Positions 5,467 through 27,168 of a DNA stretch of 29,419 bases are shown here, piece after piece (positions within the stretch are counted from its first letter, which is position 1; every line of letters starts with the position of its first letter). The stretch lies in NCBI GenBank assembly GCA_964463405.1, contig CAYXCX010000001.1, positions 1 through 29,419 of the forward strand, in the 5' to 3' direction. The translations under genes were made by a program, and so were the position numbers. Under the pieces are notes generated by a model. The model was not told the origin of the DNA. It worked only from the letters and a program-made list of their open reading frames with translations, and did no database searches. Origin of the DNA: an uncultured Clostridia bacterium. Lineage in GTDB: Bacteria; Acidobacteriota; Aminicenantia; UBA2199.

Positions 5467-6874
5467 GCGTCCGCCTCACTCCCATGTAGCAGTCCAAGTT
5501 GTAGAGGGGGATGAACGGCAGGTCGCGGCGCCACAATTCGTGGGCGCGTTCGTACGCCGTCCGCCGCTTCTTGTCGTCCATTTGCCGCAGCCCGGCTTCC
5601 AGCGCGTCGTCCATCTCCCGGCAGGAGTAGCCGGCATAATTGAAATAGCCGCCCGAGGAGAGGACGTCCCTCAGGTTCCAGTCGAGGTCGAGGAGGAACG
5701 ACGAGACGGCCAGGTCGAACTCCCCCCGCTTCAGGCGCTGCAGGAAAATCTGGTACTCGAGGAACTCCGGCTTCAGGTCGACCCCCTCAGCCTTCATTTC
5801 CTGGCACAGGAAGAGAACGAGCTCCCGGCGCACGCTGGACTCGCTGTTGGTCAGGATGCGCAAACGGCGGCGCGCGGCCGGCGCCGTCACCGGCAGGCGG
5901 CGCGGCTTCTTCTCCGCGCCGAACAGCAGGAAGGGCGAATACACGCGGTCACCGCGCCCCTGCAGGAACTCGGCGAGAAAGGACGTGGCGTGCAGCCGGT
6001 TGTGAAAGCGGCGGCGCAGGTTCAGGTCGAGGCCGGGCTGGCGCAGGTTGAAGGCCAGGTAGGAGTAGCCGAATTTCTTGAATGGCAGCAGGCGGAAGGC
6101 GCGGCGCCAGGATTTCAGCCGCGGGTAGGCGGCGGCGTCGTCGCCGTGGATTTCGGCCGCGTCCAGTTCCCGGTTCAGCAGCTTGAGCGGCGCCTGGCGC
6201 GGCTCGCCGAGAACGGCGTAGCGGATCCGGGAGAAGGGCAGTTCGCCCGGCCAGTGGGGGTTCGCCTCCAGCTCGAAGCCCCAGGGAGAGTCGATCGCGG
6301 CCAGGCGGTAGGGACCGCTGCCCAGCGGCACGCTGCCGCGGAACGTCTCCGGGTCGGCGCCGCCAATCTGGCCGGCGCTCAGGATCTTGAATGTCAGGTA
6401 GCTTTTCCAGGGGGCGTACCGCTCGCGCAGGCGCAGGCGGAGTTCCAGCGGCCCCACTGCCTCGGCCGCGGCCAGGAAATCAAGGTCGGAGGCATAGGGA
6501 TACTGGAAGCGCGAGTCGCGCAGCAGGCCGATGGTCGCCGCCACGTCGCGGCTGGCGAGAGGCGCGCCGTCGGCGAAGCGCGCCCCCGGCCTGAGCGCCA
6601 GCCGGATCACGGTGCCGTCTTCGCTCAGTGAATGGGAGGCGGCCAGCTCGGGAACGGGCCGTCCTCGGCCGTCGAAGCGGAACAGGGACTGGTACCCCTT
6701 GTTGGCCACCGCCTGGGCCGTCTCGCCGGTGGCATAGACCGGGTTGAACGAGGCGGGGAAATCATAGCAGGCCAGGCGCAGCTCCGGTTTTGCCGAGGCG
6801 GCGCCGGCCAGCAGCGGCAGCAGCAGCAGCCAGCGGAGGAAGCGGGAACGGCCGGAGGGCGGCAAAGGGGGCAT
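5393..6874 (-). CDS. ABC transporter family 5 (peptide/nickel-type) substrate-binding protein
   Basis: Signal peptide; PASFNPV, SLFRFD, LRPGARFADG..LASRDV and PLGSGPYRL motifs; C-terminal DLPFIPLY. Confidence 0.85.
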   Translation of the reverse strand: MPPLPPSGRSRFLRWLLLLPLLAGAASAKPELRLACYDFPASFNPVYATGETAQAVANKGYQSLFRFDGRGRPVPELAASHSLSEDGTVIRLALRPGARFADGAPLASRDVAATIGLLRDSRFQYPYASDLDFLAAAEAVGPLELRLRLRERYAPWKSYLTFKILSAGQIGGADPETFRGSVPLGSGPYRLAAIDSPWGFELEANPHWPGELPFSRIRYAVLGEPRQAPLKLLNRELDAAEIHGDDAAAYPRLKSWRRAFRLLPFKKFGYSYLAFNLRQPGLDLNLRRRFHNRLHATSFLAEFLQGRGDRVYSPFLLFGAEKKPRRLPVTAPAARRRLRILTNSESSVRRELVLFLCQEMKAEGVDLKPEFLEYQIFLQRLKRGEFDLAVSSFLLDLDWNLRDVLSSGGYFNYAGYSCREMDDALEAGLRQMDDKKRRTAYERAHELWRRDLPFIPLYNLDCYMGVRRTLTPPRERVELIGSCGDFLYQLQGW

Positions 6875-7108
6875 TTACTTGACCAGGCGCACCTCGGAGA
6901 TCTCGGGGATCTCCTTTTTCATCACCTGCTCGACGTAGCCCTTGATGGTGTACATGCTCATGGGGCAGCCGAAGCAGTGGCCCTTGAGCCGGACCAGCAC
7001 CGCTTTTTCGTCGGCCAGCACGTCGACCAGCTCGATGTCGCCTCCGTCTCCCTGCAGCGCCGGCCGCACCTGCTCGATGACGGCGGCTACCTTTTCCTTC
7101 AGTTCCAT
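6875..7108 (-). CDS. NifU C-terminal (Nfu) domain Fe-S carrier protein
   Basis: VRPALQGDGGDIELV...LKGHCFGCPMS: Nfu signature with CxxC; 77 aa stand-alone domain. Confidence 0.92.
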   Translation of the reverse strand: MELKEKVAAVIEQVRPALQGDGGDIELVDVLADEKAVLVRLKGHCFGCPMSMYTIKGYVEQVMKKEIPEISEVRLVK

Positions 7109-7117
7109 GTCGTCTCC

Positions 7118-8032
7118 TTATCCGTACTGCAGCATCGCCCGCAGGGCGCGGCCGGCGGGGCCGGCCACGGCGGGGTCGATCTCGATCTCGTAGCGGTCCA
7201 GGAGCAGGGCGTCGCGCACGTCGCGCAGGGCCGTGCGCTTCATGTTGCTGCAGACTTTCTCGGCGCCGGCGGGGATGAAGCGCTTGCCCGGGTTCTCGCG
7301 CGCCAGCCGCTCGAGCAGCCCCTGTTCGGTGGCCACGATAAACTCCTGCGCCTGCGCCGCCGCGGCGTAGCGCAGCATGCCGCCGGTGGAGAGGACTTCG
7401 TCGGCAAGGGCGGCGACCTCGGCCCGCGCCTCGGGATGGACCAGGACCACGGCCCGCGGATGGCGGGCACGCATGGCCTCGATCTCCTGGGGCTTGATGC
7501 GGTCGTGGACGTAGCAATAGCCTTCGAAAAGGTGCAGCGTCTTCTCCGGGACCAGGCGCTGCACGTAGCCTCCCAGGTTGCGGTCGGGCACGAAGATGAT
7601 CTCGGCGGCGGGAATGCCGCGCACCACCTGGGCGGCGTTGGCCGAGGTGCAGCAGGCGTCGCTTTCGGCCTTGATCTCGGCCGAGGAGTTCACGTAGGCG
7701 ACGACCGCCGCCTTGGGATGCCCGGCCTTCAGCCGGCGCAGTTCCTCGACGGTGATCATGTCGGCCATGGGACAGCCGGCGTCAAGGCGCGGCAGCAGGA
7801 CGCGCTTTTCCGGGGCCAGGATCTTGGCCGTCTCGGCCATGAACTTGACCCCGGCGAAGACGATCACGCCCTGGCTGAGGGAGGCGGCCCGGCGGCTGAG
7901 ATCGAGGGAGTCGCCGAGAAAATCGGCGGCCAGCTGCACCTCCGCCACCTGGTAGTTGTGGGCCAGGAGGACGGCCCCGCGCCGCCGCTTCAGCTCCTCG
8001 ACTTGTTGCCGCAGATTCTCTTGTTTCGTCAT
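7118..8032 (-). CDS. nadA: Quinolinate synthase A ([4Fe-4S])
   Basis: LAHNYQ, AGCPMAD, YVNSSA..KA..D.CCTSANA, PDRNLG, GYCYVH, VHPE, STGGM and CSNMK, covering the three cluster-ligating Cys motifs. Confidence 0.96.
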   Translation of the reverse strand: MTKQENLRQQVEELKRRRGAVLLAHNYQVAEVQLAADFLGDSLDLSRRAASLSQGVIVFAGVKFMAETAKILAPEKRVLLPRLDAGCPMADMITVEELRRLKAGHPKAAVVAYVNSSAEIKAESDACCTSANAAQVVRGIPAAEIIFVPDRNLGGYVQRLVPEKTLHLFEGYCYVHDRIKPQEIEAMRARHPRAVVLVHPEARAEVAALADEVLSTGGMLRYAAAAQAQEFIVATEQGLLERLARENPGKRFIPAGAEKVCSNMKRTALRDVRDALLLDRYEIEIDPAVAGPAGRALRAMLQYG

Positions 8033-8047
8033 GCTTCGTCCTTGGCC

Positions 8048-8076
8048 ATTGTAGCCGGTCGCGCTCGAGCCGTCAA
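8048..8076 (-). promoter_or_regulatory. Sigma70-type promoter for nadA (TTGACG-N17-TACAAT)
   Basis: Minus strand: TTGACG at 8076-8071, a 17-nt spacer, TACAAT at 8053-8048; 15 nt upstream of the ATG. Confidence 0.7.
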
Positions 8077-8183
8077 CCGGCCGGGATCCGAAACGGGCAG
8101 GAGCATCCCCAAGGCTAGTGTTGGCCAGCGCGATGAATGTTTTTTATGGCAGCCAAGCATTCCACAATTTGAATTCGATTCAA

Positions 8184-8212
8184 TGGCCATGTTCGCAAAA
8201 ACGGTGTATAAT
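8184..8212 (+). promoter_or_regulatory. Sigma70-type promoter for the TPAT operon (TGGCCA-N17-TATAAT)
   Basis: Perfect TATAAT at 8207-8212; weak -35 (4/6) at 8184-8189 with a 17-nt spacer. Confidence 0.55.
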
Positions 8213-8239
8213 TATCCCGCGATCCCGGAGATGCAGCCG

Positions 8240-9199
8240 ATGAAAAAAACAGCTTTCCCCGCCGGCCTCTTTTTGCTCTCAGCCCTGGTCCTGTCCCCGG
8301 CCTGTTCGTTGCGCAGGCTGGCGCTGAACGGCGTGGCCAATGCCCTGACCGGCAGCTCCCAGGGCACCGTGTTCACCGGCGACAACGACCCCGAGCTCGT
8401 CGGCGACGCCCTGCCCTTCGCCATCAAGATGTACGAATCGCTGCTGGCGGCCAACCCCCGCCACCAGGGACTGCGGCTGACGACCGGCAGCCTGTACGTC
8501 ATGTACGCCAATGCCTTTCTGCAGACCCCGGCCTCGATGCTTCCCGAGGCGGAATACCTGGCCCAGGAATTCACTTACCAGAGGGCCAAAAACCTCTACC
8601 TGCGCGGCCGCGACATCATCCTCGACCTGCTGGAGATGAAGTATCCCGGCTTCCGCTCCAGGCTGGAGCGCAAGGACTACGCCGCTGCCCTGGCCGCCGC
8701 CCGGCGCCGCGACGCCCCGCTCCTCTACTGGGCGGGGGCTGGCTGGCTTGGCGGCTACGCCATCGATCCCTTCGACATGGACCTGGGGATGACCCTGCCG
8801 GCGGCCGCCGCCCTGATCGAGCGGGCCTACGAGCTCGATCCCGACTATGCGGCCGGCGCGCTGCACGAGTTCTACATCCTCTATTACGGCTCGCTGCCGG
8901 AGTACATGGGCGGCAGCCTGAAAAAGGCGCGCGAGCACTTCGCCAAGGCGCTGGCGGCGTCGGGCGGACGTTCGGCCACCCCCTACATCTCCCTGGCCAC
9001 GGCAGTGACCGTCAAAGAGCAGAACCTGGCCGAGTTCCGCGAGCTGCTGGGCAAGGCGCTGGCCATCGACCCCGACGCGGTCCCGGAAACCCGGCTCGTC
9101 GGAGCGCTGAACCGGCGCAAGGCACGGTGGCTTCTTGAGCACGCCAGTGACTTCTTCGTCGAGGCCGAGGATGCCGAGGGGGATAGCGAGGAGAAATGA
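8240..9199 (+). CDS. tatT: TRAP-T-associated TPR-like lipoprotein TatT
   Basis: GGAG 9 nt before ATG 8240 (alternative ATG 8231). Lipobox LSPA-C; DNDPELVGDALPFAIKMYESLL, LYVMYANAF and GGSLKKAREHFAKA motifs; sits directly upstream of a DctP gene. This is the real 3' part of the 6632..9199 ORF. Confidence 0.85.
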   Translation: MKKTAFPAGLFLLSALVLSPACSLRRLALNGVANALTGSSQGTVFTGDNDPELVGDALPFAIKMYESLLAANPRHQGLRLTTGSLYVMYANAFLQTPASMLPEAEYLAQEFTYQRAKNLYLRGRDIILDLLEMKYPGFRSRLERKDYAAALAAARRRDAPLLYWAGAGWLGGYAIDPFDMDLGMTLPAAAALIERAYELDPDYAAGALHEFYILYYGSLPEYMGGSLKKAREHFAKALAASGGRSATPYISLATAVTVKEQNLAEFRELLGKALAIDPDAVPETRLVGALNRRKARWLLEHASDFFVEAEDAEGDSEEK

Positions 9200-10188
9200 A
9201 CATGAAAAAATGCGCTTGGGCCTCATTCCTGCTGCTGGCGGCGCTCGCGCTGCCGGCGCAGGTGATCAAGATCGGCAGCATGGCCCCCGACCGCTCGCCA
9301 TGGGACGACGCCCTCAAGGAGATCGCCCGCGAATGGGAGAAGATCACACAGGGCCAGGTAAAGCTGAAGATCTACCCCGGCGGCATCGCCGGCGGCGAGG
9401 AGGACACGATCCGCAAGATGAAGGTCGGGACTCTGGGCGGCGCCGTCCTGACCAACATCGGCCTGACCAAGGTCAATCCCGACGCCTTTGTCCTCAGCAC
9501 CCCGTTCCTGTTCCACTCGGAGCAGGAGATGGCCTACGTCATGGAGCGGCTCACCCCGGTCTTCGAGAAGCAGATCGAGGAGAAAGGATTCAAGGTGGTC
9601 ATCTGGACCATGAGCGGCTGGGTGAATTTTTTCTCCAAGGCTCCGGTCCTCTATCCCCGCGACCTGAAGCCCCAGAAGCTGGCCATCAGCACCGGCGAGC
9701 CGGAGATGGAGCAGGCCTGGAAAAAATCGGGGTACCACATCGTGCCCAACGAGCTGAAGGACCTGATGATGGCGCTGCAGAGCGGCATGGTCGACGCCTT
9801 CTACCTGCCGCCATTGGTAGCCGGCTCTGGGCAGTACTTCGGCCTGGCTCGCCACATGAACTCGCTGAAAATCGCCCCGCTGGTCGGCGGGCTGGTGATC
9901 GTGGACCGCATCTGGAAGCGGATCCCCGACGTCCACAAGCCGGCCATGCAGGCCGTGGTGCAGCGCGTCTCCCGCAAGCTGGGCGGCGAAACCGATGCCC
10001 TGGAGCGGAAGGCCTTGGAATCGATGAAGAAGAACGGCCTTGTCATCCATGAACCCCCGGCCGACAGCCTGGCCCTGTGGAAGGAGACCGCCGAGCAGGG
10101 GATGGACGAACTGGTGGGCAAGGTCTTCAGCCGCGAGATCTATGACAGGCTGCTGGCCCTGCTCCAAGAATACAGGCAGAAAAAATGA
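9196..10188 (+). CDS. tatP: TRAP substrate-binding protein (DctP/TatP)
   Basis: Signal peptide then IKIGSMAPDRSPW; LKIYPGGIAGGE, PFLF and ALQSGMVDA motifs. ATGA overlap with tatT; ATG 9202 has better SD spacing. Confidence 0.9.
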   Translation: MNMKKCAWASFLLLAALALPAQVIKIGSMAPDRSPWDDALKEIAREWEKITQGQVKLKIYPGGIAGGEEDTIRKMKVGTLGGAVLTNIGLTKVNPDAFVLSTPFLFHSEQEMAYVMERLTPVFEKQIEEKGFKVVIWTMSGWVNFFSKAPVLYPRDLKPQKLAISTGEPEMEQAWKKSGYHIVPNELKDLMMALQSGMVDAFYLPPLVAGSGQYFGLARHMNSLKIAPLVGGLVIVDRIWKRIPDVHKPAMQAVVQRVSRKLGGETDALERKALESMKKNGLVIHEPPADSLALWKETAEQGMDELVGKVFSREIYDRLLALLQEYRQKK

Positions 10189-12053
10189 GCCTGGCCGGGT
10201 TCCGCAAAAATGCGCGCTGGCTGGAATCGCTCCTGGCCTTTCTCGCCATATTCCTGCTAGCGCTGTTCCCCAACCTGGAGGTGATCGCCCGAAAGTTTTT
10301 CCACACCGGGGTGCGCAATTCGACCGAGTTCACCCACCAGCTGGTCCTGGTGCTGGCTTTCATCGGCGCGGCCATCACCAGCCGGGAAAACCGCCACCTC
10401 TCCCTGACGCTGAACTTGAAGATGAAGCCTTCCCTGCTGTCGCGGGTGCAGGTCCTGAACGCCCTCGTCAGCACGGCCTTCGCCGCCGCCTTTGCCTGGT
10501 CGGCCCTCTCGTTCACCCTCAACGCCTTCGACCCGGGCGATGTGCTCTGGCTCATTCCCAAGCGCTGGATCGCCGCCGTCATGCCCCTGGGCTACGGCGT
10601 GGTGGCCTACCGCTTCGCCCGCCAGGCCCCGCGCGCCTGGGGCAAGGCCATCGCCGCCAGCGGTTTTTTGTTCGGCACGCTCCTGGCCCTGGAGCCGGCG
10701 GCCAACAGCGCGGCCGTCCTGGCGCCGGCGGCCGAGGGGCTGCTCCGGCCCCTGCTGCCGGCCTTCGCCTGGATCGGCGCCCACCTCTCCACGCCGATCA
10801 TCCTGCTGCTGCTGTTCGGCGCGGTCACCGGCCTGCCGATCTTCATCGTCCTGGGCGGCATCGGCTTCATGCTGTTCGCCCACGCCGCCCAGCCGCTGGA
10901 GGTGATCGCCAACGAGGCCTATTCCCTGCTGACCAGCCACTCGCTTCCGGCCATACCCCTTTTCACCTTCACCGGCTTTCTCCTCTCCGAGAGCAAGGCC
11001 GGCGAGCGCATCGTCCGCCTCTTCCAGGCGTTCTTCTCCTGGTTCCCGGGCGGACTGGCCCTGGTGGCCATCCTGGTCTGCACTTTTTTCACCACCTTCA
11101 CCGGCGCCTCCGGGGTCACGATCCTGGCCGTGGGCGGCCTCCTCTCCTACGTCCTGGTCCGCGGCGGATACGGGAAAAAATTCAGCTCCGGGCTGCTGAC
11201 CGCCGTGGGCAGCATCGGCCTGCTTTTCCCGCCCAGCTTGCCGGTCATCATCTACGGCGTGACGGCGCAGGTCAGCATCAAGGACATGTTCGTGGGCGGC
11301 ATCGTGCCCGGGATCGTCATGGTGCTGGCCATGGCCCTGCTCGGCATCCTGTACGCCAAGAAGCGGAAAGTCCCCCGCGAGCGCTTCGCCCCGCATGCGG
11401 CGCTGGCGTCGGCCGGCAGCGCCTTCTGGGAGATCCTGCTGCCGGTCATTATCGTCTGGGGGTATTTCGGCGGCATCACCACCCTGGTGGAGAGCGGCGC
11501 CGTAGCCGTCATCTACACGCTGGTGGTCGAGGTCTTGATCCACCGCGACATCAAGCCCCGCGACCTGGCGAACGTCATGCTCAAGTGCATGCCCATCATC
11601 GGCGGCGTGCTGGCCATCCTGGCCCTGGCCAAGGGCCTCTCCTATTATATCGTCGACGCCGAGATCCCCATGCAGCTCACCGCCTGGGTTCAGGGTGCCA
11701 TCCATTCCAAGTACGTGTTCCTGCTGCTGCTCAACCTGGCGCTGCTGGTCACCGGCTGCTTCATGGACATCTTCTCGGCGATCATGGTCGTCGTGCCGCT
11801 GATGATCCCCCTGGGCGACCTGTTCGGCATCCACCCCGTGCATCTGGGGATCATCTTTTTGGCCAACATGGAATTGGGCTACCTGACGCCGCCGGTGGGG
11901 ATGAACCTCTATCTGGCCGCCTACACGTTCAACGAGCCGATCGGCAAGATATACAAGGACGTGTTTCCCTTCCTCATGATCCAGCTGGCGGCGGTCCTGC
12001 TCATCACCTACGTCCCCTTCTTCGCGACCGGGCTGCTGGGCCTTGTAAAATAA
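10185..12053 (+). CDS. dctM: Fused TRAP small+large permease (DctQ-DctM)
   Basis: N-terminal 4-TM DctQ-like part (EVIARKFF...AFIGAA...RHLSL) followed by DctM motifs (AIPLF, GLLFPPSLP, GYLTPPVGMNL); 622 aa. Confidence 0.9.
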   Translation: MSLAGFRKNARWLESLLAFLAIFLLALFPNLEVIARKFFHTGVRNSTEFTHQLVLVLAFIGAAITSRENRHLSLTLNLKMKPSLLSRVQVLNALVSTAFAAAFAWSALSFTLNAFDPGDVLWLIPKRWIAAVMPLGYGVVAYRFARQAPRAWGKAIAASGFLFGTLLALEPAANSAAVLAPAAEGLLRPLLPAFAWIGAHLSTPIILLLLFGAVTGLPIFIVLGGIGFMLFAHAAQPLEVIANEAYSLLTSHSLPAIPLFTFTGFLLSESKAGERIVRLFQAFFSWFPGGLALVAILVCTFFTTFTGASGVTILAVGGLLSYVLVRGGYGKKFSSGLLTAVGSIGLLFPPSLPVIIYGVTAQVSIKDMFVGGIVPGIVMVLAMALLGILYAKKRKVPRERFAPHAALASAGSAFWEILLPVIIVWGYFGGITTLVESGAVAVIYTLVVEVLIHRDIKPRDLANVMLKCMPIIGGVLAILALAKGLSYYIVDAEIPMQLTAWVQGAIHSKYVFLLLLNLALLVTGCFMDIFSAIMVVVPLMIPLGDLFGIHPVHLGIIFLANMELGYLTPPVGMNLYLAAYTFNEPIGKIYKDVFPFLMIQLAAVLLITYVPFFATGLLGLVK

Positions 12054-12107
12054 GCAACTGGCGCAACATCAAACTGTAATCAAAGAACCTCTAAAAGAAA
12101 CGATCTC

Positions 12108-12139
12108 TTAGTGATAGTGATAGTGTTAGTGATAGTAGC
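12108..12139 (+). repeat. Hexamer array copy A, (W)TAGTG x5
   Basis: ttagtg atagtg atagtg ttagtg atagta at 12108-12137, in an AT-rich gap between convergent genes. Confidence 0.85.
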
Positions 12140-12183
12140 GAGCACTGGAACGATCTCTAAAAATATTCGCTAACTGAGTTCGC

Positions 12184-12217
12184 TGATTGCTGTTCCTAAC
12201 ACTAACATTATCACTAT
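12184..12217 (-). repeat. Hexamer array copy B (inverted) with ACAGCAATCA tail
   Basis: The reverse complement reads atagtg ataatg ttagtg ttagga acagcaatca. It is complementary to copy A at 20/22 positions and 29/34 identical to copy C. Confidence 0.85.
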
Positions 12218-12225
12218 TCTTCTGC

Positions 12226-13527
12226 CTATTCGAACTCGGGCGATTCGCCGACCAGCACCGCAATGACCTCGGGCTTGTCGTCGCTCTGCAGGATGAAGCT
12301 GCCCTCGATTCCCGCGATGCGGACGATCGGCGCGCCCTTGGCCGTGTGCGAAAGCCGGACCTCGGGGTACTGCAGGCGCATCTGGTCGAGGGTGCTGCCG
12401 ATGCCGATGCCATCCGCCGTCCGCAAGAGCGGGCTGACGACGGTGATGCCGCAGGCCAGCCCCCCCTTCTCGTACACGTAGAACAGCGGATCGCCGGCCG
12501 GATCGGTGATCTTGAATACGTCGCGGTAGGATTCGCCGACCAGCACTTTGCGCCGCAGGGCGCGCTGGGACTGCGGCAGCTTGCCGGCGATGCTGGCGAC
12601 CGGCGTGTCCAGCGCGACGGCGCCGACCCCGCGGGTGGAAATCAGCAGCCCGGCCTCGACGGGCTTGCCCCAAGGGCGCAGCGGCAGCAGCTGGCCGCGG
12701 AGGATGTTCTGGCCGGAAGGGGCCGGAAGCAGCTTGAATTCGAGGCCGGCGGCCTGCACTTCGGCCAGAACGCCCGCCAAGTCGGCCTTCTGCAACTCCT
12801 GCAGGACGCGGTCAACCGTCCTGATCATCCGTTTTTGCGGGGTAATGACCAAGACCTCGGCTTGGGTTACGGCTCCCTTCTCCAGCTTTTCCAGGGCGGT
12901 CACGCGAAACCCGCGGAATTCGCCTTTCGCCGTCCGCGCCGCCTGCCCGCCGCGGGCCGTCGTCTGCGCGCCGTTCAGGATGCGCACGCGGATGGCCAGC
13001 GCTTCGGCCAGGGCCGCCAGCTGCGGGTCGGCTTCCGGGGCCAGAAGCGGACCCGCCGGCCGCACGGCCAGCGGAACCTCGCCGGCGAAGGGCTCGGCAG
13101 TCAGCACCTGCTGCTCAAAACGCTTCTGGATGAGCGCCTTGCTGCGGGCGACGGCTGCCGCATAGCCATTCGGTTCGCCCGCTTGCTCCTCGGCTTCGGG
13201 CAACGGGCTTGCGGGCCGGACCGGCTCCTCCTTGCCCCCCCCCGAAGTGGCGACGATGACCAGCACCAGCAGCAAGCCCGCGACAGCGGCGATCATCCCC
13301 CAGACGCTCGCCGGCACAGGAGTCCGGGCCGGCCGCGCCGCGTAGGGGCGGTAGGTCGGCTGCGGCCGCGCCGCCGGCTCAGGCCGCCGGGATTGGCCGT
13401 CGTAGATGGTGGCGGGAGCCGGGCGGGTCTCCGCCACCATGGCCTCGGGGGGAAGGTTCAGCGGCGTCTCCGGCGGAGCCGGGGGCGCGCTCGGGTGATT
13501 GGGATCGGGAGGGGTGTTTTCTGCCAT
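12226..13527 (-). CDS. Hypothetical bitopic membrane protein (Pro-rich cytoplasmic N-tail, single TM, two extracytoplasmic domains)
   Basis: GGAG 6 nt before ATG 13527 (alternative 13533). GC-rich coding-like codon use; TM VWGMIAAVAGLLLVLVIVA; C-terminal RTADGIGIGSTL..Y motif. No family recognised. Confidence 0.75.
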   Translation of the reverse strand: MAENTPPDPNHPSAPPAPPETPLNLPPEAMVAETRPAPATIYDGQSRRPEPAARPQPTYRPYAARPARTPVPASVWGMIAAVAGLLLVLVIVATSGGGKEEPVRPASPLPEAEEQAGEPNGYAAAVARSKALIQKRFEQQVLTAEPFAGEVPLAVRPAGPLLAPEADPQLAALAEALAIRVRILNGAQTTARGGQAARTAKGEFRGFRVTALEKLEKGAVTQAEVLVITPQKRMIRTVDRVLQELQKADLAGVLAEVQAAGLEFKLLPAPSGQNILRGQLLPLRPWGKPVEAGLLISTRGVGAVALDTPVASIAGKLPQSQRALRRKVLVGESYRDVFKITDPAGDPLFYVYEKGGLACGITVVSPLLRTADGIGIGSTLDQMRLQYPEVRLSHTAKGAPIVRIAGIEGSFILQSDDKPEVIAVLVGESPEFE

Positions 13528-13543
13528 GCTCATCTCCGGCGAT

Positions 13544-13572
13544 AAAATAGTCCAGCGAGTATTTTTTGTCAA
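13544..13572 (-). promoter_or_regulatory. Sigma70-type promoter for the orphan gene (TTGACA-N17-TATTTT)
   Basis: Perfect TTGACA at 13572-13567, a 17-nt spacer, TAnnnT at 13549-13544. Confidence 0.65.
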
Positions 13573-13598
13573 CGCATAATGGGAGACAAAAAGAAACA

Positions 13599-13636
13599 AG
13601 TGATAGCGATAGTGGTAGTGGTAGTAACAGCAATCA
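13599..13636 (+). repeat. Hexamer array copy C with ACAGCAATCA tail
   Basis: agtg atagcg atagtg gtagtg gtagta acagcaatca; 26/30 identical to copy A (direct orientation) and inverted relative to copy B. Confidence 0.85.
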
Positions 13637-13649
13637 AAGAGCTTGTTCA

Positions 13650-13670
13650 ATAAAACCCTTGGCAAGGGCC
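13650..13670 (-). terminator. Putative intrinsic terminator of the glgA-trx-amrS operon
   Basis: Minus strand GGCCCTT-GCC-AAGGGTT followed by TTATT; about 80 nt downstream of the amrS stop. Confidence 0.45.
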
Positions 13671-13705
13671 TTTCACTTATACCTTTTTACTTTTGCCTTA
13701 TGCCT
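13671..13705. repeat. Degenerate heptamer tandem array (TWTRCCT-like x5)
   Basis: tttcact tatacct ttttact tttgcct tatgcct. Confidence 0.7.
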
Positions 13706-13747
13706 TGAGCGCGGAGCGCGCCTCTGGTTACGCGATACGCTGGCCCA

Positions 13748-14755
13748 TTATTGCCATACCCCGGCCACATGCGCCCCGCAGGCGGAGCAGGCCCCCGCGC
13801 TCAGCCCGGAGGCCGTCACCCGGTAGCCGCGGCGCTCGACCAGCGTTTTCCGGCAGCGCGGGCAACGGGTTTGGCTCCAGCGGTCATCGTCGAAATTACC
13901 CCCGTAAACAAAGCGAAGCCCACGCTGCTCCGCCCTTTCCAGGCAGCGGCGGATGGCTGCGGCCTCGGTCGGCGGCAGGCCGGCCATCTGGTGGCAGGGG
14001 AAAAAGCGCGAAACGTGCCAGGGGACATCGCCGCCCAGGCCGAACAGGAACCCGATCAAGTCCTCTATTTCGGCCGGATCGTCGTTCAGGCCCGGTATCA
14101 GCAGGGTGGTGACCTCGATCCAGATCCCCGCCGCCTTCATGGCGGCGATGGTCTCCAGGACCGGGCCGAGACGGGCGGAGCAATAGCGCTTGTAAAATTC
14201 GTCGCGAAAAGCCTTCAGGTCGATGTTGGCCCCGTCCAAAAACGGGGCGAGCAGCGCCAGGGCCTCGGGACCCAGGTAGCCGTTGCTGACCAGCACGTTG
14301 CGCAAGCCGGCCGCGCGGGCCTGTTGCGCCGTTTCCGCGACCAGTTCAAAAAACACCGTCGGCTCGGTATAAGTATAGGAGATCGAGCGGCAGCCGCCCT
14401 CCCGGGCCAGGGCCACCAGGCGCGCCGGGGTGAGGGCTTCGCCCTTGATGTCCTCTTCCTGCCGAACAACCGACAGGGAGTGGTTCTGGCAGAAGCGGCA
14501 GGAGAAGTTGCAGCCCATGGCGGCGACGGAGAAGGATCGCGATCCGGGCAGGAAATGATAGAGCGGCTTTTTTTCGATGGGATCTATGTTGGCGGCGGCG
14601 ACGCGGCCGGCGTTGAGCGAGATTAGCTGGCCGGCCGCGTTCTTCCTTACCCCGCACAGCCCCCGCTTGCCGGGGGCGATCCGGCATTGGTGGGCGCAGA
14701 GGCGGCAGCGCACCCAGCCGTCGCCCAATTTTTCGCCGAGAACCGCCTGGATCAT
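13748..14755 (-). CDS. amrS: AmmeMemoRadiSam-system radical SAM enzyme (PflA-like)
   Basis: N-terminal CxxCxxxC (CRLCAHQC) plus GLCGVR; DPIEKKPLYHFLPG; radical SAM GCNFSCRFCQN; SYTYTEPT; C-terminal CPRC and CSAC knuckles. Confidence 0.92.
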   Translation of the reverse strand: MIQAVLGEKLGDGWVRCRLCAHQCRIAPGKRGLCGVRKNAAGQLISLNAGRVAAANIDPIEKKPLYHFLPGSRSFSVAAMGCNFSCRFCQNHSLSVVRQEEDIKGEALTPARLVALAREGGCRSISYTYTEPTVFFELVAETAQQARAAGLRNVLVSNGYLGPEALALLAPFLDGANIDLKAFRDEFYKRYCSARLGPVLETIAAMKAAGIWIEVTTLLIPGLNDDPAEIEDLIGFLFGLGGDVPWHVSRFFPCHQMAGLPPTEAAAIRRCLERAEQRGLRFVYGGNFDDDRWSQTRCPRCRKTLVERRGYRVTASGLSAGACSACGAHVAGVWQ

Positions 14756-23982: not shown

Positions 23983-25101
23983 TCACGTCACCACCCGGGG
24001 AATCAGGGGGTTGATGCGCGACAACACTTCATAATTGATGGTCCCGGCCCATTCGGCCAGCATGTCCGCGTCGATCCGCTCCTGGCCCTCGTTCCCCAGC
24101 AGGGTAACCGGGTCTCCGGCCTTCACTCCGGGCACGTGGCTGACGTCAGCCATGAACATGTCCATGCAGACCCTGCCGCGCACCGGCGCCTTGACGCCGT
24201 GGACCAGGATTTGGGAGGCGTTGGACAGCTTGCGGTCGTAGCCGTCGTAATAGCCCACCGGGATCACGACGATCCTGGACTTGGCGAAGGCCTTGTAGGT
24301 CAGGCCATAGCCGATCGCCGCCCCCTTGGCCACGGTCTTGACCTGGGCCACCTTGGCGTGCCAGCTCAGCACCGGCTTCAGGGCGATGCCCTGCTTGTGC
24401 TTTTCCAAGTACAGGGCGTGGGTCTGCCGCGAAGGCCAGTAGCCATAGGCCGATATCCCCACCCGGGCCATGTCGAAATGGGTCTCGGGAAAGAGCAGGG
24501 TCGACGCCGAGCTGGAGAAATGGCGGCAGGCACCGCCCCCCTTCAGCCGCCGTAATAGGCCGCGGAACAGCTTGAGCTGGCCCTGGGCGAAGGCCGGGTC
24601 GGTCGTGTCCTCGATGTTGGCGAAATGGGAATAGACGCCGCAAAGCTCGACCCGCTCCGGGTTCAGCCGCTGCAGCAGGGCGACGGCCCTGCCGGGATCG
24701 ATGCCCAGGCGGTTGGTCCCGGTCTCGATCTTGAGATGGACCCGGGCCCTGCGCCCGACCCGCGTCGCGGCGGCCAGCAGCCAGCGCAGGTGCTCCTCGG
24801 AGGGGACGACCGCCTCGAACCCCCGCCGCAGCAGCTCGTCCAGTTCATCCCGGTCGCTCCAGCCGAGGATCAGCACCGGCTTGTCGGCAACCAGTTCGCG
24901 GACCGCCAGCGCTTCGGCCAGCGAATCGACGGCATAGCGCCCGACAGCGGTTGAGCGGCGGGCGATCTCCACCACCGGGCGCAAGCCGTGGCCGTAGGCG
25001 TTGGCCTTGACCACGAACATCAGCGGCGCCCGGGTCAGGCGCTGGAACTGCCTGAGGTTGTGGAGCAGGTTGGCGGCGTTCAGGGCGACGTGGGTCTTCA
25101 T
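23983..25101 (-). CDS. alr: Alanine racemase
   Basis: VVKANAYGHG (PLP lysine), VHLKIETG.NRLG, YSHFA, RVG...YG, IGYG.TY, GYYDG, GRVCMD and GTINYE motifs. Confidence 0.96.
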   Translation of the reverse strand: MKTHVALNAANLLHNLRQFQRLTRAPLMFVVKANAYGHGLRPVVEIARRSTAVGRYAVDSLAEALAVRELVADKPVLILGWSDRDELDELLRRGFEAVVPSEEHLRWLLAAATRVGRRARVHLKIETGTNRLGIDPGRAVALLQRLNPERVELCGVYSHFANIEDTTDPAFAQGQLKLFRGLLRRLKGGGACRHFSSSASTLLFPETHFDMARVGISAYGYWPSRQTHALYLEKHKQGIALKPVLSWHAKVAQVKTVAKGAAIGYGLTYKAFAKSRIVVIPVGYYDGYDRKLSNASQILVHGVKAPVRGRVCMDMFMADVSHVPGVKAGDPVTLLGNEGQERIDADMLAEWAGTINYEVLSRINPLIPRVVT

Positions 25102-25175
25102 GTTCGCGGCGGCGACGGCTGGCTTTTGCGCTTCATTGTGGGCCTCGATTTGATTCCGGCGTTCTTAAGATATTC

Positions 25176-25181
25176 TATAAT
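25176..25181 (+). promoter_or_regulatory. -10 box (TATAAT) upstream of the barrel-PKD operon
   Basis: Perfect TATAAT in a very AT-rich divergent gap; no -35 at canonical spacing (TTGATT is 20 nt upstream). Confidence 0.4.
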
Positions 25182-25227
25182 AAAATTAATAATTGAGATA
25201 CAAGCCGTTGCAAAGCTATTTTCAAGT

Positions 25228-27168
25228 ATGGTATTTTCGGCCCACAGGGAGTTGAACAGGGCAAAAACAACAGCGTGGAGCGCCGTACTCTGTTTGCTGG
25301 CCTTCTCGGCTGCGGCCCAATCGCCGGTGCGGATGAACACCCTGCCCCGCGTCGAGCGCCTGCCCGACCAGGTCGTCATCCGCATCAGCCCGCGGCCCGA
25401 GCACGGGGCCTATTTCCTCCACTACCGCACCGAGGGCATGACCGGCTACCAGGTGCGCAAGATGCAGCAAGAGGCCTCGGGGGCGTTCAGCTGCCGCATC
25501 GCCATTGCCAACCTCTACGGCAAGGACATCGAATTTCGCGTGGTCGAAAAGAAGGGTTCCGGAGAAGCCGCCGTTTCGCTCAGCCACACGGTGGCCGGCT
25601 TTACCCGCCAGGAGTCGCCGGAGATCTATTTCCAGGAGGCCGGCGACGCCGCCGCCCCCGCGCGCCGCTGGCAGCCGCCGCTGAACGTCAACGCCTCGCT
25701 GTCGACGGCGACCAAGCTGGACGAGAACAACGACAGCGGCTATTACCAGCAGAACTACACGGCCAACGGCAACCTGCGCATCTACAAGAACATCGCCAAG
25801 AATGACACCCAGATCGATTTCGACACCAACTTCAACCACCTGGACCCCTGGAACGAAGAGACCGAGAACCGCGTCAACCTGTCCAGCATGATGGTGCGCT
25901 TCAAAAAGGGCGCCATGCAGATCGAGGCGGGCGACGTGGCGGTCAACGCCACCGAGTTCACCACTTCCTACCTGAACCGCCGCGGCTTGCGCTTCGAATA
26001 CGCCGGCAAGAGCCTGTACTTGAACTCCTTCTACACGAATTCCCAGCAGAAGACCGGCTTTGACGGCTACGGCATCCCCGATTCCAAGGCCGGCATCTTC
26101 GGCGCCGTGGCCGGATTCAACCTGAAGAACACCCTGACGGTGCGCGGCCTGGTCATGACCGGCCGCGACAACCTGGTCAGCAAGACCGTCTACAGCGCCG
26201 ACGAGTACCGCAAGGGCAGCATGTTCTCCCTCTGGAGCGAACTGAGCCTGCTGCGCAACAGCCTGCAGGTCACCGGCGAGATTTCCTCCAGCACCTACGG
26301 CGCCGCCGCCAGCCAGGAGGAGATCGAGACGGCCAACGACACCGCCTGGAAGGCGGGGCTGCGCTTCCAGCGCGGCATCCTCTCCTTCTCCGCCGACTAC
26401 GAGGATATCGGCGACCACTTCCAGTCGATCGCCAACCTCTTCCTGCAGAACGACCGCGAAGGCCTCAGCACCAACCTGGGGCTCAGCATCAAGTCCTTCT
26501 CCTGGAACCTCAGCTATGTCGACAAGAAGAACTACATGAACAACCCGCTGCAGGACATGCTGCACCAGCGCCGGGCCGGCACCACGCTGAACTGGGGCCT
26601 GGGCCGCCACTTCCGCGTCGGCGCCGACGTGTCCCGCGACAACCTCGACTACGACTCCTCGACCGGGCTGCAGACGTCAACCTCGGACATGAACACCTAC
26701 AATTACAGCGCCTCGCTGGGCTACATGGCCGGAGCGACCGGCGTCAATCTCAACGTGGGCCGGACCGAATCGGTGAATTTCAGCTCCAACCTCACCGCCT
26801 CGCTCTCGCTGAACCTGCGCTTCGGCAAAGTGGTCACCCTGAACCCAACGCTCAGCTTCCAAGAGAATGAAGCCTTAAGCGACGGCAGCAAATCGACCGT
26901 GTACAACGCCTTCGTCAGCTCCGAGATCACCTTCATCCCCCAGTACCTCACCCTGACCGTCTCCTCCTCCTACATGAGCAACGAAGGCGCCTTGAGCAAG
27001 AGCGCCAGCTGGACGGCGGGCTGCAACCTGAACTTTTTCGCCGCCAAGCTCTTCAAGGACAAGGTCCGTCCCTCGCTCTCCCTTAAATCGATGTTCCAGG
27101 GGGCCAAAACCGGGGACATCAAAACCGATTCGTCCATCTTTCATCTCCAGGCAGATATCGCTTTCTAA
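25228..27168 (+). CDS. Predicted large outer-membrane beta-barrel protein with an N-terminal soluble domain, function unknown
   Basis: Signal peptide ending AAA-Q; about 100-aa soluble domain; about 500 aa of amphipathic strands rich in N/S/T/Y/G; C-terminal beta-signal-like FHLQADIAF. Start uncertain (ATG 25228 or TTG 25252). Confidence 0.75.
   Translation: MVFSAHRELNRAKTTAWSAVLCLLAFSAAAQSPVRMNTLPRVERLPDQVVIRISPRPEHGAYFLHYRTEGMTGYQVRKMQQEASGAFSCRIAIANLYGKDIEFRVVEKKGSGEAAVSLSHTVAGFTRQESPEIYFQEAGDAAAPARRWQPPLNVNASLSTATKLDENNDSGYYQQNYTANGNLRIYKNIAKNDTQIDFDTNFNHLDPWNEETENRVNLSSMMVRFKKGAMQIEAGDVAVNATEFTTSYLNRRGLRFEYAGKSLYLNSFYTNSQQKTGFDGYGIPDSKAGIFGAVAGFNLKNTLTVRGLVMTGRDNLVSKTVYSADEYRKGSMFSLWSELSLLRNSLQVTGEISSSTYGAAASQEEIETANDTAWKAGLRFQRGILSFSADYEDIGDHFQSIANLFLQNDREGLSTNLGLSIKSFSWNLSYVDKKNYMNNPLQDMLHQRRAGTTLNWGLGRHFRVGADVSRDNLDYDSSTGLQTSTSDMNTYNYSASLGYMAGATGVNLNVGRTESVNFSSNLTASLSLNLRFGKVVTLNPTLSFQENEALSDGSKSTVYNAFVSSEITFIPQYLTLTVSSSYMSNEGALSKSASWTAGCNLNFFAAKLFKDKVRPSLSLKSMFQGAKTGDIKTDSSIFHLQADIAF

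Follow-up and report, generated by a model that had tools for sequence, protein, structure and literature searches.

The described systems that stand closest to the repeats reported here are the RAYT-associated repetitive extragenic palindromes (REP) of Proteobacteria, with their BIME and REPIN forms (PMC3116915; PMC3733652), the short tandemly repeated repetitive (STRR) sequences of cyanobacteria together with the contiguous heptamer repeats of Nostoc and Beggiatoaceae, whose function is unknown and for which roles in transcript stability or regulation have been suggested (PMC2670836; bioRxiv 10.1101/2022.06.06.494920), and the MITEs (miniature inverted-repeat transposable elements) with sub-repeated terminal inverted repeats, such as Correia/NEMIS and ERIC (reviewed in PMC3184786). 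Structural roles, either in transcript ending or in spacing, have been proposed for REPs (PMC3733652) and for STRRs (PMC2670836). The present analysis concerns a stretch of 29,419 nucleotides (contig CAYXCX010000001.1 of assembly GCA_964463405.1; hereafter the window) from an uncultured bacterium of the Aminicenantia, in which three short arrays of xTAGTG hexamers, termed A, B, and C, lie in the two spacers flanking a single gene. A preliminary description of this DNA had proposed from the inverted pair B/C either a mobile or invertible cassette or independent insertions of an REP-like family. The evidence assembled below favors, at a probability of roughly 0.78, the reading that all three arrays belong to a high-copy family of small intergenic repeats specific to the lineage and do not delimit a cassette. 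The family occurs mainly in Aminicenantes-type bacteria, and its short hexamer arrays are usually paired as hairpins.

When one genome per species was scanned with the pattern AGTGATAGTGNTAGTGNTAG, at least 107 loci were returned, and 36 of the 107 listed come from about 14 metagenome-assembled genomes (MAGs) labelled Candidatus Aminicenantes/Aminicenantia or Acidobacteria, often from several contigs per MAG; the other listed loci are mostly scattered single matches in low-GC taxa, and some represent several contigs of one high-GC MAG (e.g., JBIIIA01 and JAKSDA01). Together, the window and the Aminicenantes/Acidobacteria loci (346 kb) hold 95 arrays, 82 of which (86%) fall outside crude open reading frame (ORF) calls, in DNA that makes up only 12% of the total; the exceptions that were checked, window array C included, lie in ORFs over-extended upstream. 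The arrays are polar, in that a first unit, often xAAGTG, is followed by ATAGTG, TTAGTG, or GTAGTG units (TCAGTG or ACAGTG in a variant type) and then by a cap, given by a position-frequency matrix as NTAG(C/T)A and, after it, (A/G)(C/G)AGCAA. They run at a period of 6 with 4-6 units overall, and 89 of the 95 contain 3-5 perfect AGTG units. Their sites occupy convergent, tandem, and divergent spacers, and no strand bias relative to the transcription of flanking genes was found (4 same versus 8 opposite). Frequently, the arrays are embedded in mosaics of other 6-8-nt tandem arrays, with period-7 arrays adjoining them and with modules common to different loci and genomes. A tblastn comparison of the window with the labelled loci gave no genes in common, and the designation Aminicenantes-type derives from the distribution of the repeat family together with the composite match in L055 described below. 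No paper on repeats of this kind in Aminicenantes was found in the literature.

The pairing of the arrays is equally constrained. Among neighboring arrays less than 300 nt apart, 20 pairs are tails-inward (+/-), none is tails-outward (-/+), and 20 lie on the same strand (binomial p = 2e-6). All 20 doublets, with inverted arms of 18-36 nt, fold with their arms paired (median 23 pairs, loops of 40-237 nt, z -3.3 to -11); single arrays plus 12 nt fold weakly (median -3.0 kcal/mol). The tails-outward orientation of B and C at kilobase distance was met once among the other loci, in L019 (L numbers denote compared loci and X numbers metagenome runs), where it surrounds two unrelated genes. As at least two separate sites occur in 10 of 37 independent loci of at most 8 kb, two sites 1.4 kb apart are ordinary for the family.

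Within the window, the hexamer motif TAGTGNTAGTG with at most one mismatch is matched 9 times against 0.13 expected, always inside the three arrays (12109-12137(+), 12200-12216(-), and 13604-13626(+); Table 1). Much of what had been read directly from the sequence stands: B and C are 29/34 identical in inverted orientation, each carries hexamer units and then the tail ACAGCAATCA, which is exact at 12184-12193(-) and 13627-13636(+), the tails point outward, and one gene with its sigma-70 promoter is enclosed between AT-rich flanks (the GC of the two spacers is 0.47 and 0.52, versus 0.65-0.76 for the genes). Copy B reads ATAGTGATAATGTTAGTGTTAGGAACAGCAATCA on the minus strand from 12217 to 12184, and copy C reads ATAGCGATAGTGGTAGTGGTAGTAACAGCAATCA at 13603-13636. 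In a repeat finder, the inverted match lengthens to 41 nt at 80%, the arms lying 1385 nt apart. The earlier inventory of repeats, however, had missed array A (period 6, 4.7 copies in TRF), which is the natural partner of B: the two are 91% complementary over 22 nt across a gap of 56 nt by the listed array limits, or 62 when a shorter B core is scored, and they fold as a long imperfect hairpin (-43.2 and -44.8 kcal/mol, z -3.0 and -2.2, for the two strands). Their doublet is typical of the 20 in the family. Because close inverted family pairs are always tails-inward and fold as hairpins, A plus B, and not B/C, is the natural family unit in the window.

Likewise, array C had been taken for a 34-bp unit and is instead the head of a modular composite of about 145 nt, the outer end of which adjoins the amrS stop codon. 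With its hexamers removed, the composite matches in nhmmer searches the orthologous spacers that flank the gene on either side in L002 and L003, as well as a paralogue at an unrelated locus of the Aminicenantes MAG L055 (E 5e-6). Searched at gathering thresholds, the window, L002, and L003 gave no Rfam match, nor did 11950-13850 at E <= 1. The proposed tail-only copy at 12072-12088 does have the 14/17 identity claimed for it and is a partial inverted repeat of the tail of B, and a repeat finder lists it over 29 nt at 72%, but matches to ACAGCAATCA with at most 2 mismatches are not above chance (13 versus 15.5 expected). The 10-bp direct repeat AACGATCTCT on either side of array A is the sole case of at least 10 nt among 93 arrays tested, against 0.35 expected. 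In other metagenome contigs the motif lies 5' or 3' of arrays (pieces 12093-12135 and 12108-12164); the pair may represent a one-off target duplication from an insertion of about 40 nt or a motif internal to the element.

Evidence on copy number and on the stability of the locus comes from the assembled contigs of eight sludge or wastewater metagenomes that carry it at about 99% identity. Over array A, contig depth sums to 21 to 64 times the flanking baseline across the eight (about 27-64x), as in run X7, where it reaches 3501 against 71, and the excess is contributed by further contigs of comparable depth whose match is confined to about 40-57 nt, which implies that each genome holds dozens of copies. 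Elsewhere in these metagenomes, a 57-nt A-type unit (12108-12164) is found again at about 96% identity. Array B has whole-unit alleles, with TATCAC added after 12208 in X1-X4 and X8 and CTAACA added after 12195 in X7, so that three unit-number alleles separate near-identical strains; these changes look like slippage. Contigs spanning the locus are present in five of the eight metagenomes and all are colinear, and neither a strand-changing joint nor a long-sided excision joint occurs in the contigs of any of the eight, which speaks against the suggested inversion of 12217-13603. Joints that skip about 1460-1540 nt were rejected as gene deletions, given that their sides measure only 20-27 nt, beyond which the similarity ends; such joints are cross-matches that stem from other loci.

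The history of the site can be read from relatives of the enclosed gene. Gene order is constant in all homologue-bearing contigs (glgA-like, thioredoxin, thioredoxin reductase-like, amrS, the gene, and the convergent dctQM-dctP-TAtT), and the gene lies between amrS and dctQM in every relative; dctQM itself is part of no repeat element and keeps a constant position. Six relatives, each scored over about 8-21 kb of DNA, are free of arrays, namely L112/L113 and L116 (53% identity), L114/L115 (45%), and L237 (66%), with spacers of 52-73 nt upstream and 17-36 nt downstream of the gene. A TTGACA...TATTTT promoter also precedes the gene in L112, L116, L237, and L001, the relatives whose promoter regions were inspected. 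Since the same gene and promoter occur in repeat-free relatives, both are ancestral and the repeats came later; the gene is conserved and vertically inherited rather than cargo. A cargo-free site joining the neighbors was not found in the repeat-free relatives, as all six keep the gene between amrS and dctQM.

The repeat-bearing sub-lineage comprises the window, L236 (84%), L001-L004 (75-77%), and L238 (68%). Its downstream array always starts 7-10 nt past the stop codon (8 nt for the head of array B), and the position and tail of copy B recur in L001, L002, L003, L236, and L238, with tail changes in L001 and L002: an ACAGCAA-TCAgaGAACTC-type tail is common to the window, L003, L236, and L238, only ACAGCAC is retained in L001, and L002 continues differently. 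Such shared position and tail indicate that the downstream array is one old insertion and that window B is its head, orthologous to the head of the downstream composite in the relatives. The upstream spacer is much more variable. In L001 it is empty and holds a short, ancestral-looking GC palindrome, while it is filled in the sister L003, which has a long form where the window has a short one. In L002 (9493-9933), an upstream composite of about 223 nt is tandemly duplicated, the copies being near-identical by eye; its modules are a GC hairpin, AAAAGGC heptamers, an internal module of about 90 nt, which window C does not contain, and hexamers. The upstream element of L236 consists of heptamer modules only, without hexamers and in the opposite orientation.

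Table 1. Positions of the arrays, composite modules, and adjoining genes in the window.
Feature	Position	Strand	Remarks
dctQM, fused TRAP transporter permease	10185-12053	+	Pfam DctQ and DctM; NCBIfam dctM; converges on the enclosed gene
Tail-like remnant AACTGTAATCAAAGAAC	12072-12088	+	14/17 versus tail of C, 13/17 versus tail of B; weakly supported
Array A with 10-bp direct repeat AACGATCTCT on each side	12099-12158	+	Copies at 12099-12108 and 12149-12158
Array A	12108-12137	+	TTAGTG ATAGTG ATAGTG TTAGTG ATAGTA, then degenerate GCGAGC; left arm of A/B hairpin doublet
A/B hairpin doublet	12108-12217	.	Tails inward; between stop codons of convergent dctQM and the enclosed gene
Array B and tail	12184-12217	-	ATAGTG ATAATG TTAGTG TTAGGA ACAGCA ATCA
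Enclosed gene, 433 aa	12226-13527	-	No Pfam or NCBIfam match
Promoter, sigma-70-type	13572-13544	-	TTGACA-17-TATTTT; belongs to the gene, not to the repeat
Array C and tail	13597-13636	+	CAAGTG ATAGCG ATAGTG GTAGTG GTAGTA ACAGCA ATCA
Composite C, modular, about 145 nt	13597-13740	+	Fills the spacer that separates the promoter from the amrS stop codon (13748-13750)
Composite C: hexamer array	13597-13632	+	Six hexamer-type units, then tail
Composite C: small hairpin	13656-13668		CCCTTGGCAAGGG
Composite C: six CTTNTNC heptamers	13669-13710		
Composite C: GC hairpin	~13707-13724		
Composite C: two xxTACGC heptamers	13727-13740		
amrS, AmmeMemoRadiSam system radical SAM enzyme	13748-14755	-	TIGR04337, 329 bits versus cut-off of 220; Pfam Radical_SAM

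Taken together, these comparisons suggest the following course of events. A family array consists of an xAAGTG first unit, 3-5 xTAGTG units, and a decaying cap TAGYA-RSAGCAA, and such arrays appear as tails-inward doublets (hairpins of about 23 bp), as same-strand clusters, or as heads of longer mosaics built of other 7-8-nt tandem arrays and small GC hairpins. In one sub-lineage, both spacers flanking the ancestral gene were colonized: a composite with B as its head arrived just past the stop codon of the gene, array A was added later to give the hairpin doublet, and a separate composite, C, settled in the interval from the amrS stop codon to the promoter. The bracketed appearance of B and C then arises only because two family members sit in adjacent spacers in opposite orientation. 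Spread would have proceeded through a trans-acting function encoded elsewhere, supplemented by local slippage and recombination; by analogy with REPINs, this function is most plausibly one that handles single-stranded hairpins. The main effect at the locus would be structural, with A/B providing a bidirectional transcript-end hairpin for the convergent genes and composite C spacing or insulating the gene's own promoter from amrS.

Several observations weigh against an origin of the arrays by dispersal of a repeat family. The comparisons gave no filled/empty pair that was clean and had exact boundaries, and arrays flank the gene in every member of the sub-lineage except upstream in L001, a persistence that inheritance from one ancestor explains and that could hint at a local function. 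The variable first base of the units gives a pattern that is unique in nearly every array (77 arrays, almost 77 patterns), a result that disposed of conserved master sequences such as A-A-T-T and G-A-G-G subfamilies. The arms of one doublet are 58% alike, versus 57 +/- 4% for the arms of unrelated doublets, so that recent copy-and-paste of whole doublets is not demonstrated; on the same ground, selection for arm complementarity, or its recent origin, was rejected. Slippage-driven growth could explain part of the array pattern, and systematic target-site duplications are absent, the distribution of flanking direct repeats being that of a permuted control. No mobilizing enzyme was identified: a low-power phmmer search with an IS200 TnpA query gave no Y1 transposase match in 2661 ORFs of the sampled loci, which cover little of any genome, and no cognate insertion sequence with the same ends was seen in genome slices of at most 8 kb. 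Contigs, moreover, show presence only, which places rare inversions beyond their evidence, and the metatranscriptomes yielded few contigs, each of 151 nt (on dctM, the gene, and amrS) and none on the repeats.

Some of these points are those on which an account without transposition would build, according to which the arrays are microsatellite-like, born locally by slippage or recombination in AT-rich spacers, and alike through convergence or gene conversion. The unit-number alleles between near-identical strains, the near-uniqueness of the variable base, the missing target duplications, the doublet arms that are no more alike than random ones, and the many other 6-8-nt arrays in the same spacers all agree with it; nevertheless, it leaves unaccounted for the polarity of the arrays, with their defined first and last units and common ACAGCAA(T) cap, the narrow unit number (3 to 5 AGTG units in 89 of 95), the exclusively tails-inward doublets, the recurrence of non-repetitive composite parts at a different locus of another genome (L055), and the A-type unit found elsewhere in the same metagenomes, and we consider it quite unlikely. 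The suggestion that the arrays are binding sites for a genome-wide oligomeric nucleic-acid-binding protein, be it a nucleoid or architectural protein on DNA or a ring-shaped RNA binder of the TRAP or HutP type reading UAG triplets at a fixed spacing, is compatible with mobility and is likewise improbable, if slightly less so. Its appeal lies in the invariant AGTG/TAG core, the single variable base, the strict 6-nt period, and the 4-6 units, as a multi-subunit reader would impose, and TRAP and HutP read (G/U)AG repeats with 2-4-nt spacers; yet no candidate protein was identified, variant arrays have CAG in place of TAG, and the absence of strand bias noted above argues against an RNA-strand-specific role.

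Two further accounts would tie the arrays to this gene in particular. If they were operators, a regulator would bind upstream of the promoter and past the stop codon and thereby loop or insulate the gene. Arrays do lie upstream of the -35 box at a distance of about 24-39 nt (window about 24, L002 27, and L003 39) and 7-10 nt past the stop codon in the same three, an arrangement kept across the sub-lineage despite divergence of the protein to about 75% identity. Against this, arrays occupy dozens of unrelated intergenic sites in every gene-orientation class, the repeat-free relatives retain the same promoter, L001 does without the upstream array and L236 without upstream hexamers, and a 6-bp period puts successive sites on different faces of the duplex; we regard such gene-specific operators as highly improbable. 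Least credible of all is the cassette, in which B and C would terminate a single element, bearing the gene with its promoter, that transposes or flips by recombination via the 34-bp repeats. In its favor are the inverted, 29/34 identical copies enclosing exactly one gene and its promoter, and the longer inverted composites (115-200 nt) that flank the gene in L002 and L003. The preliminary description had itself held that relatives carrying the gene in place without repeats, and repeats scattered genome-wide as singletons with no tendency to bracket genes, would refute it, and by the comparison of synteny the cassette is refuted. L112-L116 and L237 have the gene and promoter at the same site with no repeats, and the repeats are indeed dispersed, although usually as hairpin doublets or clusters rather than singletons. 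In addition, L001 carries the downstream copy only, the upstream element of L236 has reversed heptamers and no hexamers, no recombinase or transposase is present among the ORFs of the window (the earlier reading had likewise seen no transposase), the spanning contigs are colinear with no inversion joint in any run, and tails-outward close pairs are absent from the family (0 versus 20 tails-inward). The other half of the earlier proposal, independent insertions of an REP-like family, was essentially right as regards a lineage-wide intergenic family and failed only on the strict definition of an REP.

A bolder extension of the dispersed-family reading, which is tentative and on balance doubtful, holds that the hexamer arrays and the neighboring 7-8-nt arrays form a previously undescribed modular class of short tandem arrays, on which polarity, unit count, and tails-inward pairing are imposed by an oligomeric nucleic-acid-binding or mobilizing protein. 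If true, the class would be neither a RAYT/REP system nor a DDE-type MITE and would represent a new way to build and spread intergenic hairpins; the proposed class in Aminicenantes would have a parallel in an (ATAGTG)n hairpin family of some Chloroflexota MAGs. The sites in question lie in MAGs labelled Thermoflexales or Chloroflexota, where (ATAGTG)n inverted pairs with very short loops were observed (L007 5094-5178, L010 4394-4449, L050 92-, L066 65-109, and L083 1651-1770), and, unless the bins are mislabelled, they constitute a parallel hexamer-hairpin family outside Aminicenantes.

Other observations were made in passing among the scanned loci. A doublet of Aminicenantes style occurs in L012, which is labelled Patescibacteria. 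In the Aminicenantes MAG UBA6072 (L061, 6394-7547), a 1.2-kb spacer consists almost wholly of short tandem arrays, with the hexamers TCAGTG/GTAGTG and the heptamers CGCATAA, CGGTGGA/CGGTTTA, AAGGCAA, GGCGAGG, TCCAAAT, and TTGGTGC, and forms a large inverted structure around a core of about 400 nt. A dispersed module rich in AAATTCC/TCCAAAT (aaattccaaatcccaagcaccaaattccaa) accompanies arrays in L023, L024, L028, L061 (e.g., 7208-7272), and L075. Units resembling classical REPs, in which GTAG precedes a GC-rich palindrome (e.g., GTAGGGGAGGGTCTCAGACCCTCCC and TGTAGGGGCGGTTCGCGAACCGCCCCTACA), adjoin hexamer arrays in L020 (~7200), L028 (~4500), and L108 (6380-6440), and hence a GTAG-REP/RAYT system may also be present. 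A scan of viral contigs with the hexamer pattern gave at least 119 matches, about 30 of the 80 listed coming from giant-virus MAGs; these were set aside as uninformative for the family.

The enclosed gene had been called an orphan, a label that its 17 homologues (43-84% identity) do not support. In an AlphaFold2 model built on the homologue alignment (pLDDT 66.8), the protein has a disordered, Pro-rich N-terminus, beta-rich domains, and one long helix (residues 74-94), a likely membrane anchor; its C-terminal domain resembles E. coli YfeY (Foldseek 2qzb_A, E 2.9e-4, target TM 0.63). On account of the predicted anchor helix and the likeness to the uncharacterized YfeY, the protein, which is conserved only within the lineage, is probably an envelope protein of unknown function. 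Elsewhere in the window, an 855-aa ORF at 6632-9199 (+) contains a TAtT domain (residues 584-842) and is probably over-extended; relatives have in this region a TAtT protein of 319-382 aa and, on the opposite strand, a nadA-like gene, at the place of which the window has a high-GC3 ORF (7118-8143(-)). A 737-aa ORF at 24955-27168 (+) shows gene-like codon usage and no Pfam match.

For the locus itself the result is deflationary, in that the window holds no hidden mobile or phase-variable cassette and the supposed orphan encodes a protein conserved in the lineage and probably located in the envelope. The by-product is a repeat family that is well defined, seems not to have been described before, and belongs to an uncultured phylum often met in anaerobic digesters. 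Assemblies are fragmented by it, with many contigs ending at arrays, and, as the unit number varies between strains, it could serve as a typing marker. It also furnishes, beside the cyanobacterial STRRs and the proteobacterial REPINs, a second independent example of spacers filled with hairpin repeats, and setting the three side by side could reveal if repeats of this type are selfish or structural or combine the two.

Measured against the described systems, the hexamer arrays share several features with REPs and REPINs: they are extragenic units of 30-40 nt in dozens of copies per genome, mostly inverted doublets with a spacer and predicted hairpins (doublets are over-represented here as well), are common between convergent and unidirectional genes, lack target duplications, and persist vertically at orthologous sites; many units even contain GTAG, albeit only as part of GTAGTG. 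They nonetheless fall outside a strict definition of REPs, single arrays being direct repeats and not, like REP units, imperfect palindromes that carry at one end an unpaired GTAG or CGTC tag. Their copies are also highly heterogeneous, with doublet arms no more alike than random ones, in contrast to the near-identical REPIN doublets of a genome; no RAYT match was found by a low-power search of the sampled loci; and the host is of the Aminicenantes type, not a proteobacterium. Invertible DNA switches such as fim, hin, and the shufflon likewise have short inverted repeats around a promoter-bearing segment, but the window contains no recombinase gene and the contigs of eight metagenomes show one orientation; moreover, flipping the B-C segment would switch nothing, since the promoter drives the gene within that segment. 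With MITEs, the family shares non-coding intergenic units of about 100-290 nt, inverted arms of about 25-35 nt, and long hairpins; given that it lacks target-site duplications, it is not a strict MITE, and its loops vary between copies and its arms are heterogeneous. STRRs offer a parallel in their short, hairpin-forming tandem units (usually 7 bp) repeated 3-8 times, dispersed over numerous intergenic sites, be it near promoters or start codons or between genes, and several kinds of heptamer arrays do adjoin the hexamer arrays; the family differs in its 6-nt unit with one variable position, its polar caps, its strictly tails-inward doublets, its ordered multi-module mosaics, and its occurrence in another phylum.

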